64,000 nt of DNA from Longimicrobiales bacterium. Lineage in GTDB: Bacteria > Gemmatimonadota > Gemmatimonadetes > Longimicrobiales > Gaopeijiaceae. Positions 2,151 through 12,482 of the stretch are shown here, in pieces (position 1 is the stretch's first letter; every line of letters starts with the position of its first letter). The notes beneath the pieces are model-generated. The model searched no databases. It had not been told where the DNA came from and saw only the letters and a list, made by a program, of their open reading frames with translations. The DNA lies in assembly GCA_965218295.1 (NCBI GenBank), contig CBDCKN010000003.1, positions 416,001 to 480,000 on the forward strand, given 5' to 3'. The position numbers and the translations under genes were made by a program.

Positions 2151-2822
2151 CTAACCCAGACTGTGAATGCCGCATTCCGTTCGGACCCGTCCCCTCCACC
2201 TGCCAGCCCGCTCGTGCTCGCCTGAGGACACGGGCGTCGTCAGAGGCTCGTCGCCGACGCTGGCATAGCCGAGATCATGCAGGGGGTTGTACGGCACATC
2301 GTTGGATCGAATGAACGACCAGACTTCGTCACCGGTCCAAGACGCCAACGGATTGATCTTCACTCGATGGTTGATCTCTACATGTTGGAGACCGGCACGG
2401 CTGGACGACTGGTCCCGTCGCCGTCCCGTGATCCAACCCTGGACGCCACGGAGGGCCCGCTTCATGGGTCTGACCCTGGTGAGCTCATGAAAGTGATCGA
2501 GATCCCGCTCCCAGAGACGCTCCCCGTGGGCCCGCTCGAAGTCTTCTCGAGACTCGGCTGCCCGGTAGAATCGCACGTCGAGGCCGTAGTGGGCCTTCAC
2601 CCGCTCGGCATGCTCGAGAGTCTCGGGGAAGTGATGAAGGGTGTCGATGAACACGACCGGGACTTCTGGCGCGATCTCGGCCAGGAGGTGGATAGTCACC
2701 ATTCCCGTGGGCCCGAAGGACGTGCATAGGACGAGGTGATCCCTTGCCACGTTCTCCACCGCCCACCGGATGATCTCCGAGGGATGCCAACGCTCCAACT
2801 GCGAGACCAGTGTCTCCGCCAT
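2151..2822 (-). CDS. cysH: Phosphoadenosine phosphosulfate (PAPS/APS) reductase
   Basis: TSFG, FIDTLHHFPET, WITGRRRDQ, KINPLASW, YNPLHDLGY, ERAGRW, C-terminal ECGIH; AAGGAG RBS before the ATG at 2822. Confidence 0.92.
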   Translation of the reverse strand: MAETLVSQLERWHPSEIIRWAVENVARDHLVLCTSFGPTGMVTIHLLAEIAPEVPVVFIDTLHHFPETLEHAERVKAHYGLDVRFYRAAESREDFERAHGERLWERDLDHFHELTRVRPMKRALRGVQGWITGRRRDQSSSRAGLQHVEINHRVKINPLASWTGDEVWSFIRSNDVPYNPLHDLGYASVGDEPLTTPVSSGEHERAGRWRGRVRTECGIHSLG

Positions 2823-2860
2823 CGTTCTCCTTGTGCTCCCCCGGGGTCGCCCCCGAGATG

Positions 2861-2900
2861 AAATAGAAAAAAGGACCGCCGGTGTGCTCCGGCGGCCCTT
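2861..2900 (-). terminator. Intrinsic terminator T2 in the cysH leader
   Basis: Minus strand AAGGGCCGCCGG-AGCACA-CCGGCGGTCCTT followed by TTTTCTATTT (12-bp stem, one G-U). Confidence 0.85.
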
Positions 2901-2917
2901 CCTGGCCCTGGTTCGCC

Positions 2918-2956
2918 AAAAAGAAGACACCACCGGGAGGCTCCGGTGGCGTCTTC
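2918..2956 (-). terminator. Intrinsic terminator T1 in the cysH leader
   Basis: Minus strand GAAGACGCCACCGG-AGCCTC-CCGGTGGTGTCTTC followed by TTTTT (14-bp stem, one G-U). Confidence 0.85.
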
Positions 2957-2980
2957 GGGACGGTCAGCGCATGATATGTA

Positions 2981-3052
2981 TCAGTGCGCCCCCCGATGCC
3001 CCACCGGGCTCGGTTGGCAACAACACCGACAACAACAGCATGTGAGTCGCAT
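2981..3052 (-). CDS. Cys-rich attenuator leader peptide MRLTCCCCRCCCQPSPVGHRGAH (23 aa)
   Basis: 7 Cys codons in 8 consecutive positions; GAAGGA RBS 8 nt before the ATG; lies between a promoter and two terminators upstream of cysH. Confidence 0.88.
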   Translation of the reverse strand: MRLTCCCCRCCCQPSPVGHRGAH

Positions 3053-3085
3053 TGACAGCGTCCTTCGTAGTGGCTTGAACAGGTA

Positions 3086-3113
3086 ACACTAACCAGCGGG
3101 ATCGATCTGTCAA
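3086..3113 (-). promoter_or_regulatory. Sigma70-type promoter for the cys leader/cysH
   Basis: Minus strand TTGACA-N16-TAGTGT. Confidence 0.6.
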
Positions 3114-3140
3114 GACCGGACCGAAGTTGTGATCCGTCAT

Positions 3141-3168
3141 TTGACATGACGCACAGATTCGCTATCGT
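3141..3168 (+). promoter_or_regulatory. Sigma70-type promoter for the pro leader/proCBA
   Basis: TTGACA-N16-TATCGT. Confidence 0.6.
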
Positions 3169-3206
3169 CCCACTTGATCACGTGGACCTTTTCGACTGGA
3201 CAGACC

Positions 3207-3302
3207 GTGAACCAGCACGCACGACCGCTACGCCGACCGCGAAACCAACGTCCGTTTCCTAGGGAGCAGGCGCGTCGTGTCTTGCGTGGGGAGAACCGAT
3301 AG
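3207..3302 (+). CDS. Putative Arg/Pro-rich leader peptide MNQHARPLRRPRNQRPFPREQARRVLRGENR (31 aa)
   Basis: GTG start with GGA 6 nt upstream; 10 Arg and 4 Pro codons; its 3' part can pair with the segment leading into the downstream terminator. Confidence 0.5.
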   Translation: MNQHARPLRRPRNQRPFPREQARRVLRGENR

Positions 3303-3333
3303 AGCCACCTTCGACCCCAGAAACGCGACGTTC

Positions 3334-3368
3334 GCCGGCCTCCGTTCCAGGAGCCGGCTTTCTTGTTT
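3334..3368 (+). terminator. Intrinsic terminator directly upstream of proC (attenuator)
   Basis: GCCGGC(C)TCC-GTTCCA-GGAGCCGGC followed by TTTCTTGTTT. Confidence 0.7.
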
Positions 3369-3382
3369 CCAAGAGGTTTTCG

Positions 3383-9331: not shown

Positions 9332-9781
9332 ATGCTGAGAGACCGAGAGAGAATGAAAGAGAATGGAATAGCCCCACTAACATGGCAGGGTAAGCGAAGC
9401 GCGGCAGCCGTCCCGGACCCGGAGGTCGTGGATAAGCCGCTCCACCGCCGGTTCGCTCCGTCGTACAAGCTGCGGATCGTCGAAGAAGCGGACCGGTGCA
9501 CGGAGTCCGGAGAGGTCGGCCGACTCCTACGGCGCGAAGGCTTGTACTCGTCGCACCTGACGACATGGCGCAAGGCGGCGCATAGCGGGTCCCTGAAAGC
9601 GCTGTCGAAGAAACGAGGCCGTAAGCGCGAACGGAATCCTCTGGAGGAGAAGGTGCGCAAGTTGGAGCGTGAGAACACTCGCCTCGAGAAGGAGCTCCAG
9701 AAGGCGCACCTGATCATCGACGTCCAGGGAAAAGTTGCAGGGCTGCTGGGATTGAGCCTCGAGGACGGAACGCACTCATGA
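9332..9781 (+). CDS. IS3-family OrfA (HTH plus coiled coil)
   Basis: RRFAPSYKLRIVEEAD, LLRREGLYSSHLTTWRK. Confidence 0.85.
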   Translation: MLRDRERMKENGIAPLTWQGKRSAAAVPDPEVVDKPLHRRFAPSYKLRIVEEADRCTESGEVGRLLRREGLYSSHLTTWRKAAHSGSLKALSKKRGRKRERNPLEEKVRKLERENTRLEKELQKAHLIIDVQGKVAGLLGLSLEDGTHS

Positions 9782-10785
9782 AGGCGACCCAGGAGCTGGC
9801 CAAGCATGTAGGGGTGAAGCCCGCGTGTACTGCGCTCAGGGTCTCCCGAGCCACGTTCTACCGTCGTCGGAGTCCAACGACCGGGCATCAGCAGCCCCGC
9901 CCGACCCCCGCCCGGGCCTTGAGCGAGAAGGAACGAGACAGGGTGTTCGACACGCTGTGTTCGGACCGGTTCGTGGACCGCGCCCCGGCCGAGGTCGTGG
10001 CGACGCTGCTCGACGAGGACGTCTACCTGTGCAGCGAGCGTACGATGTATCGCGTTCTGGACTCGCGTGAGGCGGTTCAGGAGCGCCGAGCACAGCGGAG
10101 TCATCCCGAATACAAGAAACCCGAGCTGATGGCGACGGGCCCGAACCAGGTCTGGTCCTGGGATATCACCCGGCTGCTGGGGCCGAAGAAGTGGAGCTAC
10201 TTCTACCTCTACGTCATCCTGGACATCTTCAGCCGCTACGTGCCGGGATGGATGGTGGCGGATCGGGAGAACTCCGCCTTGGCCGGCCGGCTGATCCAGC
10301 AGAGTTGCCTCAAGCATGGCGTCCAGCCCCAGGTCCTGACCCTGCACTCCGATCGAGGGGCTCCGATGACGAGCCAATGCACGGCTCAGCTACTCGCCGA
10401 TCTCGGCGTGACCCGCTCTTTGAGCCGACCCCAGGTCTCGGATGACAATCCGTTCTCCGAGGCTCAGTTCAAGACCTTGAAGTACCATCCCTCGTTTCCC
10501 GGGTGGTTCGGGGATCAGAACCAGGCCAAGACATTCTGTCGCTCGTTCTTCCCTTGGTACAATACCGAGCACCGCCATGGCGGCATCTCGATGCTGACGC
10601 CCGAACAGGTCCACTTCGGTCTCGCCGATCAGGTCATCGCCCGCAGGAAGGCAGTGCTCCGCGAAGCCTGGACCGCTCATCCCGACCGCTTCGTCTCCGG
10701 TGAGCCGAAGCCTAAACCACTCCCGGAGGCCGTCTGGATCAATCCTCCAAGCCCCACCCTCACTGCACAGGAGATCGCTCTCTAA
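9778..10785 (+). CDS. IS3-family OrfB DDE transposase (rve)
   Basis: PNQVWSWDIT, LDIFSRY, LHSDRG, DNPFSEAQFKTLKY; ATGA overlap with orfA. Confidence 0.92.
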   Translation: MKATQELAKHVGVKPACTALRVSRATFYRRRSPTTGHQQPRPTPARALSEKERDRVFDTLCSDRFVDRAPAEVVATLLDEDVYLCSERTMYRVLDSREAVQERRAQRSHPEYKKPELMATGPNQVWSWDITRLLGPKKWSYFYLYVILDIFSRYVPGWMVADRENSALAGRLIQQSCLKHGVQPQVLTLHSDRGAPMTSQCTAQLLADLGVTRSLSRPQVSDDNPFSEAQFKTLKYHPSFPGWFGDQNQAKTFCRSFFPWYNTEHRHGGISMLTPEQVHFGLADQVIARRKAVLREAWTAHPDRFVSGEPKPKPLPEAVWINPPSPTLTAQEIAL

Positions 10786-10824
10786 TTGTTTCACCCAAGT
10801 GTCTCATCGGGGTTGACAGGCTCC

Positions 10825-11481
10825 GTCTTAATCCCCGTTCCGGGCGACATCCGCGAGATGGGCCTGGTAGACCGTGAGGAGCGGCTAAGGGCCTGGTGGG
10901 GGGCCGTGAAGGCACCACTGAACCCCGTAGACGCTGGTCTGCTCATGGAGCGACTGAGCTTCATGTACGGGGAACACTACCCTGAGATGAAGCCCTTCCT
11001 GAGCGAGGAAACGATAGAGGCGGTCGAGAAGAAGTACGGCCCCGTTGACCTGATTGCTGTGGGTTCCCATGGACACATGCGCGGCCTCTTGCGACGCGAT
11101 ATCAAGCGGGCTGCGAAGCAATTGGGGGTTGATCTTGGGGCCGTCCTCGGGAAATCGGGCGGCGAGTACGAAGAGTCCCTGAAGGCGCTTGAGTTGGGCG
11201 ACCTCTCTGTCTACCCACCGGCGGAGCAGTTGAAGCGAGCCCGCGATCACTTCGTCGATGTCGTTGCGGAGGTGGAGACGGGGGGTGCTAGTCGTGCCAA
11301 AGTGGATGAGGCCAAAGATACGCTCTTGGAGAAGAGCCGAGCGTATAACGCAAGCGGTCCGGGCTACGTGAAGGACTTTGAGCTTATTCAGGAGTCATTG
11401 AAGCGGCTGGCTATGCCGTCAAGCTTCGATAGCGAAGAGCCTTCCCGTCAAGAATCCGAAGAAGAAGATCCCGGAAAATGA
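10825..11481 (+). CDS. IS passenger ORF, helical protein of unknown function (start uncertain; may be the distal half of 8433-9296)
   Basis: Open frame with natural protein composition; converges on and overlaps the transposase 3' end. Confidence 0.5.
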   Translation, partial: VLIPVPGDIREMGLVDREERLRAWWGAVKAPLNPVDAGLLMERLSFMYGEHYPEMKPFLSEETIEAVEKKYGPVDLIAVGSHGHMRGLLRRDIKRAAKQLGVDLGAVLGKSGGEYEESLKALELGDLSVYPPAEQLKRARDHFVDVVAEVETGGASRAKVDEAKDTLLEKSRAYNASGPGYVKDFELIQESLKRLAMPSSFDSEEPSRQESEEEDPGK

Positions 11482-12322
11482 GCGGGTTATCCCTGTTGTT
11501 GAAGCGCCATTCAAGCTCTTCGAGGTAACGGTCCATATGCTTCACGCTGATCTTGTGGAAGGCACCCATGACGGAACGCTTGAACAGGCTCCACATGCCT
11601 TCGACGCTGTTCGTGTGGACATCGCCCACGACCCATTCGTCGAGGTTGTGCTGCACGGTGTCATGCTCGATGCCCATACGGTCCCCGAGGCCACGGTAGG
11701 CCGGAAACTCGTCGGTGTAGATGGCGAGGGCTTCATCGGTGACGGTGCGCTTGATGAAGTCGTCCAAGGTGGCCCGTTTCGTGTTCGGGATGCGCTCCAG
11801 GCGGACGCGCCCGTCACGCTGCACGGCACCCACGACGATGGACTTGTTGGTCGTCGAGTAGGGTCCTCTGCCCTTGCCTCGCTGGCGACCACCGACAAAC
11901 GTCTCGTCCACTTCGATGATCCCGAACAGCGTCGGTCCCTCGAAGCGGTCGGTAGTCATGGCCTCACGGATGCGGTGACAGAGGTGCCAAGCGGTCTTGT
12001 AGGAGACTCCGAGGGTGCGCTTCATCTGGTTCGCGCTGATCCCCTTCTTAGACTCGATCATCAGGTACATGGCCACGAACCACTTCCGCAGAGGAAGCTT
12101 GGTGTTGTCGAAGATCGTCCCCGAGGTCACAGAGAAGCGGTAGCGGCATCCGTTGCAATCGAACTGGTCCCGAGTGGTGATCTCGGATACGGACATGTCA
12201 CCGCAACGCGGGCAGGCGACACCAGACGGCCAGCGCAGCTTTTCGAGGTATTCCCGGCAGGTCTCTTCGGTTCCGAAGCGATCCATCAACGACATCAGAT
12301 TGATATTGGCGGTGCTAGACAT
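11411..12322 (-). CDS. IS1595-family transposase
   Basis: Zn ribbon CPRC..CNGC, GTIFDNTKLPL, EVDETFVGG, YTDE, HTNSVEGMWSLFKR, RYLEELEWRFNNR. Confidence 0.95.
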   Translation of the reverse strand: MSSTANINLMSLMDRFGTEETCREYLEKLRWPSGVACPRCGDMSVSEITTRDQFDCNGCRYRFSVTSGTIFDNTKLPLRKWFVAMYLMIESKKGISANQMKRTLGVSYKTAWHLCHRIREAMTTDRFEGPTLFGIIEVDETFVGGRQRGKGRGPYSTTNKSIVVGAVQRDGRVRLERIPNTKRATLDDFIKRTVTDEALAIYTDEFPAYRGLGDRMGIEHDTVQHNLDEWVVGDVHTNSVEGMWSLFKRSVMGAFHKISVKHMDRYLEELEWRFNNRDNPLIFRDLLLRILDGKALRYRSLTA

Positions 12323-12482
12323 GGTTGATTCCACCAAGCGCAGAGAGAAGGACCGGCTCCCCAAGGACGTGAGCAAACTCACGGGAGACGAGATCATGCA
12401 GAAGGTGTTCAGCAAACGCGTCGTGAAGGAGTTGAAACGCGTGGCTCAGGAAAGCGAGCCGAAAGAGCCGAAAACCGAGTAA
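12321..12482 (+). CDS. Small basic protein (53 aa) divergent from the IS1595 transposase
   Basis: MVDSTKRREKDRLPKDVSKLTGDEIMQKVFSKRVVKELKRVAQ...; its ATG shares a CATG with the transposase ATG. Confidence 0.45.
   Translation: MVDSTKRREKDRLPKDVSKLTGDEIMQKVFSKRVVKELKRVAQESEPKEPKTE

Follow-up and report, generated by a model that had tools for sequence, protein, structure and literature searches.

Leader-peptide attenuation is a textbook principle of gene regulation. In the classical attenuators of Escherichia coli (trpL, hisL, leuL, thrL, and pheL), an open reading frame (ORF) carrying codons for the cognate amino acid is combined with a 1:2 protector, a 2:3 antiterminator, and a 3:4 terminator. 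A comparative survey of attenuators from 2010 may list cysteine cases.

The uORFC-8-2 motif of Rhodobacterales cysS is a predicted Cys upstream ORF (uORF) with an intrinsic terminator, for which a readout of Cys-tRNA was proposed; as described by Brewer et al. (2021; PMC8632094), it has two tandem Cys codons near positions 14–15 and one terminator, and its 145 examples lie only before cysS in Alphaproteobacteria. In mycobacteria, polycysteine leaderless short ORFs, named the “Cys ribulon,” are described as preceding several cysteine-related operons and responding to cysteine, and the locus dissected in that preprint as undergoing translational attenuation through occlusion of the Shine–Dalgarno (SD) sequence (Canestrari et al., 2020; bioRxiv 10.1101/834739); mycobacterial Cys attenuators are also reported in PMC13236596 and PMC13096801. 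For Actinobacteria, Cys leaders with no conserved terminator were predicted in the account of Seliverstov et al. (2005; PMC1262725). Two tandem terminators and a potential antiterminator are described for the rimP leader of Gammaproteobacteria (Naville and Gautheret, 2010; PMC2965389), and leuL is presented as a leader-peptide attenuator in PMC5314783; the main texts of these two articles contain no Cys attenuator. Here, we analyzed a leader upstream of cysH in a window of 64,000 nucleotides (the whole stretch of DNA studied) from a Longimicrobiales genome, which a first-pass annotation had read as a Cys leader-peptide transcription attenuator.

Organization of the cysH leader

All elements of the leader lie on the minus strand, and the promoter, ribosome-binding site, 23-codon Cys ORF, terminators, and cysH were each located where the annotation had put them, on the basis of the sequence, a terminator scan, and a family match. 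The cysH gene (2151..2822) encodes a PAPS/APS reductase of 223 amino acids that scored above the cut-offs for TIGR00434 and NF002537, and its closest relatives belong to Gemmatimonadota/Longimicrobiales. It is a single gene, and a convergent choice-of-anchor B gene comes next. At the start of cysH, the 18 letters at 2809–2826 are replaced by 55 others in a related strain (X2, X22), corresponding to a longer N-terminus or spacer.

The −35 hexamer TTGACA (3108..3113) and the −10 hexamer TAGTGT (3086..3091) are separated by 16 nt, and we infer a transcription start near 3080. The −10 hexamer agrees with TATAAT at only three of six positions, and the leader promoter escaped the promoter scan, which also found no second promoter ahead of cysH. 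The pattern TTGACA-N16-TAG(C/T)GT was found in all 23 homologous leaders (see below), with the −35 hexamer kept in every one, TAGCGT as the −10 hexamer of the homologs, and a variable spacer sequence. An SD-like AAGGA (3061..3065) stands 8 nt ahead of the ATG at 3052, which opens a leader ORF of 23 codons (2981..3052; MRLTCCCCRCCCQPSPVGHRGAH) with seven Cys codons, at codons 5–8 and 10–12 (3040–3017). The predicted protector (1:2) hairpin, with approximate limits 2980..3031, pairs the Arg9–Cys10 region with the end of the ORF; an inner hairpin, which includes the antiterminator strand, closes its top. The predicted antiterminator AT1 (2:3; 2943..3007), in which 3007–3001 pairs with 2949–2943 and two inner helices are added, holds the 5′ arm of the first terminator, T1 (2918..2956; 14-bp stem 2956–2923, U tract 2922–2918). 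A second terminator, T2 (2861..2903), consists of a stem and a U tract (2872–2867) and was called by the scan at 2903–2868. The SD sequence of cysH, AAGGAG (2827..2832), lies outside stable stems in the leader fold.

The terminator scan found two terminators, T1 and T2, vs. 1.0 ± 1.0 expected in shuffled sequences, and the minimum free energy of the leader was beyond chance (z = −6.05). Searching Rfam returned nothing for the leader, and on this ground we discarded a riboswitch or a T-box as explanations; no T-box was found in this genome or in four relatives.

Conservation of the leader in close relatives

Genome and metagenome searches yielded 23 distinct homologous leaders, including that of the window. 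In 314 genomes of the family, BLAST with the leader gave matches in 46, mostly short and hairpin-like with E values near 0.001–0.01, and we retained a match only if it showed the Cys pattern. Among 25 metagenome pattern matches, eight (L128, L134, L136, L141, L143, L144, L146, and L149) were dropped as unrelated. The alignment (A2) comprised 22 leaders, because L139, a decayed copy lacking part of AT1, was left out for its deletion and retained only in the count of 23. With 80% column identity, these leaders are closely related and do not count as independent.

An ATG or GTG start was present in 23 of the 23 homologs and an SD-like word in 22. At least five Cys codons (5–7) occurred in each of the 22 aligned leaders, and the changes within the Cys run were nearly all synonymous; the annotation had named the lack of such a run in orthologous leaders as evidence against its reading, and the run is conserved. 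The antiterminator strand and both terminators were kept in all 22 aligned leaders, and terminators with U tracts were retained in 23/23. The next gene after the leader was cysH in nearly all cases; in L101 an unrelated ORF lies between them, and L130 ends early. In 12 of the 23 homologs, another complete Cys leader precedes cysH and brings a terminator of its own, the third of the array; three have a partial second leader, and the window has none. Genome G001 has cysH twice, in near-identical copies (L002 and L016) separated by 26 kb, each with a full two-leader array.

In the computed fold without a ribosome, the Cys codons become part of a long protector extending as far as the ORF end, and its outer stem stays paired between the window and the homologs across one double and three single changes. 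The annotation had named a different protector (TGCC-AACCG/CGGT-GG-GGCA); this one formed locally and only when the RNA was truncated, and it depends on a CAA codon that none of the 21 other aligned leaders has. We rejected it as the conserved protector, which is a distinct and longer hairpin. Of the statement that all classical pairings are present, the antiterminator and terminators stand, and the protector as named is specific to the window. The alignment of cysH upstream regions that the annotation had suggested likewise gave a divided answer: the Cys codons were conserved, and stem covariation did not exceed that in shuffles. Specifically, 97.6% of cells were paired in the ON-structure alignment, but 164 of 500 shuffles reached its covariation score, and one pair showed a double change.

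RNA contigs over the leader

Seven RNA runs were available, all as contigs, which cannot show transcript ends. Three contigs covered only the leader, at 2902–3063 (X3), 2908–3060 (X6), and 2902–3052 (X13, from another study), and a contig of the related strain (X2) ran from 3063 through both terminators into cysH. Their upstream ends (3063, 3063, 3060, and 3052) lie just inside the predicted transcript start. Because the downstream ends of the leader-only contigs lie 10–16 nt past the U tract of T1, at the foot of T2, they carry no mark of termination at T1. Overall, the contigs hint weakly at transcription of the leader. The RNA runs read C at 2929 (minus strand), which converts a G–U pair of T1 and AT2 (a predicted helix described below) to G–C. 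The region 3064–3206 had no contig in the seven RNA runs and was covered in a run of unrecorded kind, and X1, X4, and X5 had no cover over the leader ORF; in both cases the absence counts as no evidence.

Predicted switching at the first terminator

With sufficient cysteine, the ribosome would reach the stop codon and cover or free the antiterminator strand, and T1 would form. When Cys-tRNA is scarce, the ribosome would wait at codons 5–12, and AT1 would form before the 3′ arm of T1 exists and hold its 5′ arm. The antiterminator named by the annotation, 3007–3001 with 2949–2943, was recovered with a computed probability of 1.0 when the RNA ended at 2940. With this RNA end and with the ribosome taken to cover the RNA up to +12 from the A site, the probability of AT1 was 1.0 with the P site at codons 1–11, 0.54 at codon 12, and 0 from codon 13 on; its availability up to codon 11 thus matches the Cys run. 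The top helix of AT1 was paired in 22/22 aligned leaders. In the homologs, AT1 begins one codon nearer the last Cys codon than in the window, and the first three Cys codons are therefore probably the main sensors.

The specificity of this pairing was examined by folding cognate and chimeric combinations of leader segments and terminator arms in 41 sequence clusters from 72 leaders, some of them hand-picked. In the window, AT1 sequestered the T1 arm by 12.9 kcal/mol vs. 4.7 ± 2.4 kcal/mol for shuffled segments (z = −3.5), and two of 40 foreign leaders sequestered this arm as well as its own leader did. Across the set, the cognate segment beat shuffles at its own terminator arm in 34 of the 41 clusters (in 12 by >2 SD) and ranked in the top four of 41 in 17 clusters; the short-leader clusters L184, L192, L194, and L201 showed no cognate advantage. 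The folding test replaced a simpler duplex test of leader segment vs. terminator arm, which gave a weak signal (median z = −0.9), since a G-rich segment will pair with whatever C-rich arm it is given.

At equilibrium, the finished T1 had a probability of 1.0 in the window at every ribosome position; it was 10.3 kcal/mol more stable than the AT1 state, and the barrier was computed as 19.8 kcal/mol. Since T1 beats AT1 by ∼10 kcal/mol, the switch must be kinetic here, and in this model the ON state of the window would be a kinetic trap and not an equilibrium. Among the aligned leaders, the AT1 state was at least as stable as T1 in 16 of 22. With a stalled ribosome, the probability of T1 was <0.5 in 11 of the 23 homologs, and with the ribosome at the stop codon it was >0.9 in 22.

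T1 is unusually strong in the window (−22.4 kcal/mol vs. a median of −16.5 kcal/mol), as might be expected of a copy locked off by an over-strong terminator. A related suggestion is that the ORF is a small independent gene (for a metal-binding peptide) whose transcript the terminators end, or a relic; the decayed copies, namely L139 and the three partial second leaders, fit the latter. We regard this family of explanations as very unlikely, given that AT1 is intact and the RNA contig of the related strain reads through, that the scan found no second promoter before cysH, and that the position of such leaders tracks the starts of sulfate-assimilation operons at a fixed spacing (see below).

Predicted relay at the second terminator

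The annotation was right that terminators precede cysH and left the passage of T2 unexplained, for which a predicted relay helix, AT2 (2889..2936), offers an answer. In AT2, a spacer hairpin is enclosed by pairing between the 3′ arm and U tract of T1 on one side and the purine run and 5′ arm of T2 on the other. When AT1 was held, this pairing, with the spacer hairpin enclosed, formed in 8/8 leaders folded. AT2 has a computed energy of −28.2 kcal/mol in the window vs. −24.9 kcal/mol for T2 alone, and was more stable than T2 in 19 of 22 aligned leaders. The 9-nt core of T2 made a mean of 8.8 pairs with the 3′ arm of T1 vs. 7.8 with its own arm, and paired better with the former in 21 of the 23 homologs, the window being one of the two sequences in which T2 pairs better with its own arm. 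One alignment column was paired in AT2 in 21 of 22 leaders and in T2 in 3 of 22. The better pairing of the 5′ arm of T2 with the 3′ arm of T1 than with its own suggests a relay: with plentiful cysteine, polymerases leaking past T1 would meet T2, and when the ribosome stalls, the unused 3′ arm of T1 would pair with the 5′ arm of T2, so that T2 would be blocked and cysH transcribed.

In the folds, T1 and T2 both formed in 23/23 leaders with the ribosome at the stop codon. At equilibrium with a stalled ribosome, the probability of T2 fell below 0.5 in only six of the 23 homologs, and in only eight of the 22 aligned sequences did AT1 with AT2 equal or exceed AT1 with T2 in stability; the relay depends on barriers obtained by computation (median 13.5 kcal/mol, range 7.2–19.0 kcal/mol).

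The 5′ arms of T1 and T2 are near copies of each other, T2 resembles a duplicate of T1, and duplication alone could yield much of the AT2 complementarity. A Cys attenuator may work without a relay, with the duplicated T2 either constitutive and leaky, acting as damping, or opened directly by the leader strand once T1 has formed. The leader strand makes seven of nine pairs with the T2 core in all 23 homologs; in the window, the free fold with the ribosome on the last Cys codon pairs the leader with the arm of T2 around a formed T1; T2 usually forms at equilibrium despite a stalled ribosome (17/23); and one terminator is found in most leaders elsewhere in the phylum sample. However, the 3′ arm of T2 has drifted while its 5′ arm is still matched to the 3′ arm of T1, and a strong constitutive T2 would hold cysH off, yet the X2 contig crosses both terminators into cysH. 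We consider an attenuator without a relay rather unlikely. Given a Cys-sensing core, the modeled folds make the relay probable, and the combined reading, a Cys-sensing attenuator whose relay opens both terminators, appears moderately likely.

Distribution across the Gemmatimonadota

In the phylum sample, cysH was present in 60 of 401 genomes, and the scan covered 58 loci, that is, the upstream DNA of the 59 others, minus one with cysH at the contig start. A short ORF with a Cys cluster, followed by a hairpin and U tract, occurred on the cysH strand before cysH or its operon in 40 of the 58 loci, and in 35 the Cys leader and terminator were <1 kb from cysH. The same filter with ten other amino acids retrieved 0–6 of the 58 loci; its spacing was set after earlier loci had been seen, and many of the genomes are from one genus. 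One of the 40 positive loci (L208, 8.8 kb away) looks like chance. The U tract lay 44–70 nt after the leader stop (search range, 38–83 nt). In an earlier set, 31 Gemmatimonadota loci gave 41 same-strand vs. four opposite-strand matches, and 49 other loci gave 41 vs. 48. The genes after the Cys leaders, as read from translations, were cysH, sulfite reductase, cysG/cobA, cysC-like, and moeZ-like ORFs. Among the 18 misses, cysH lies inside an operon in eight, five come from a distant family whose cysH match is weaker, a SAM-II riboswitch is present in two, two (L219 and L229) combine a Cys leader with a hairpin lacking a U tract, and one has a two-Cys leader.

The two loci with a hairpin but no U tract fit another explanation, in which the peptide is the sensor, a Cys-rich nascent chain arresting the ribosome on a thiol, metal, or redox cue, or in which the translation of cysH is controlled as in mycobacteria; in Mycobacterium smegmatis, translation is described as the step on which Cys leaders act (bioRxiv 10.1101/834739). 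Among the close homologs, the peptide stretch that lies C-terminal to the run of Cys is also well conserved. This conserved stretch is at the same time the antiterminator strand, so RNA pairing explains its conservation, and across the phylum only the Cys cluster is common, not the peptide. Control of translation fits poorly with a cysH SD sequence that is free in the fold and with U-tract terminators kept in 23/23 homologs, and we find either version very unlikely. With the Cys run conserved and the same layout recurring across the phylum before sulfate-assimilation operons, the proposal of the first-pass annotation is supported, and we consider a Cys-sensing transcription attenuator on cysH highly likely from the sequence comparisons; its promoter, SD sequence, ORF, T1, T2, and alternative helices are all visible in the sequence and conserved.

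SAM_alpha (RF00521) riboswitches were found at five Gemmatimonadota loci (L205, L208, L218, L221, and L229), directly before cysH in L208 and L218. In L205, a Cys-rich ORF and another hairpin come after SAM_alpha, and together they may form a SAM-plus-Cys tandem switch. At L199, L204, L209, L216, L196, and L035, divergent genes are preceded by a second Cys leader on the opposite strand, and several of these leaders stand back to back with the cysH-side one. At L195, ∼250 nt upstream of cysH, a two-Cys leader ends at a TGA just where the next unit of a repeated Cys-Met pattern is expected, which may reflect a mutation, an error in the assembly, or recoding. Two Blastocatellia loci (Acidobacteriota; L079 and L080) have a Cys leader and terminator followed by a uroporphyrinogen methyltransferase-like gene upstream of cysH.

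Other leaders in the genome

A genome-wide scan found 152 Cys-codon clusters, and a geometry scan kept four Cys-tagged short ORFs. Two of the four precede sulfur-assimilation genes and have the strongest terminators (−24.1 and −23.1 kcal/mol vs. −15.3 and −16.6 kcal/mol). Clusters C13, C15, and C3:298913 were set aside because they are antisense to or inside long ORFs. The second Cys leader (L271; G000:C12:33554, minus strand), with one terminator, lies upstream of cysG, a gene of the sulfite/nitrite-reductase family, and two ORFs with no NCBIfam match. The scan found no similarly built leader before the sat gene at C9. The cysS gene was not found in the assembly (90.7% complete), and since it is present in 4/4 relatives searched, we attribute its absence to assembly incompleteness.

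Leaders for other amino acids were built alike. A His leader (MRTSTQHHRHHHHHPLTGGWLEMCT) with a terminator precedes hisG (window 58880 onward, plus strand; G000:C3:474880), and a Tyr/Phe leader (L272; G000:C10:11909, minus strand) with a terminator precedes a DAHP synthase gene. A candidate proline attenuator (3141–3373, plus strand) is divergent from the cysH-leader promoter and precedes proC-proB-proA; its promoter (3141–3168) is followed by a 31-codon Pro/Arg-rich ORF (3207–3302) and a terminator. Its antiterminator strength peaks at codons 13–16 and is gone by codons 18–19. The Pro ORF and terminator were conserved in five of 23 proC loci (L241–L243, L245, and L246), L244 keeps the terminator only, and an X3 RNA contig spans exactly 3207–3373. 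With these His, Tyr/Phe, and Pro leaders in one genome, ribosome-sensed attenuation looks routine in this organism. The window also contains transposase-like ORFs within 9332–12415 (9332–10785, plus strand; 11411–12415, minus strand), identified from translations only.

Comparison with known systems

In the full-text literature, comprising main texts of papers outside subscription, we found no paper on attenuation in Gemmatimonadota and no leader-peptide terminator before sulfate-assimilation genes. Nor did the full texts yield a demonstrated cysteine-sensing attenuator acting by intrinsic termination, the mycobacterial case being described as translational and the Rhodobacterales cysS case as a prediction. 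The annotation knew of no description of such an attenuator in this lineage; its novelty is lessened by the Cys uORF with a terminator already predicted before Rhodobacterales cysS (PMC8632094). Compared with uORFC-8-2 as described, the cysH leader has 5–7 Cys codons (at codons 5–12 in the window), stands before assimilation genes, and occurs in Gemmatimonadota. Like the Cys ribulon as described, the leaders reported here are poly-Cys uORFs, and a single genome carries them ahead of more than one cysteine-related operon; unlike it, the cysH-leader ORF has an SD sequence, the predicted output is intrinsic termination, and the cysH SD sequence is outside stable stems. The rimP article describes no leader peptide, amino-acid sensing, or relay (PMC2965389). 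SAM-II/SAM_alpha (RF00521) occupies the same site before cysH in other Gemmatimonadota (L205, L208, and L218), which indicates that the site is under sulfur-status control; it binds a metabolite and needs no translation, and the cysH leader has no Rfam match.

A wider picture, for which we hold the balance to be even, is that sulfate assimilation in Gemmatimonadota is governed by phylum-wide Cys-tRNA attenuators interchangeable with SAM-II, that this Longimicrobiales family uses a two-terminator RNA domino, and that strains tune its range by the gain or loss of the second leader. It would show how sulfur assimilation is regulated in a phylum that has received little study, with dozens of natural variants, and such an attenuator would imply tight transcription–translation coupling in the lineage. 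If the relay is true, one translational sensor would gate serial terminators with no second sensor, multiplying the on/off range, and would offer a simple design for synthetic switches.

The cysH leader shares with the classical attenuators a cognate-codon ORF, a predicted protector and antiterminator, and an intrinsic terminator ahead of a biosynthetic gene. The ORF has an SD sequence and start codon, a run of codons for the pathway product, and an intrinsic terminator downstream. The antiterminator is mutually exclusive with the terminator and dependent on the stall in computed folds; in the window, the equilibrium favors the completed T1. Unlike the classical attenuators, the leader is predicted to sense cysteine, has a sulfate-reduction target, and has two terminators per ORF with a predicted relay helix, and 12 of the 23 homologs add a second complete leader and a third terminator. 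By all testable sequence features, the cysH leader belongs with the classical leader-peptide attenuators; it is set apart by its predicted Cys specificity, its sulfate-reduction target, the relay predicted at T2, and its occurrence across the phylum.
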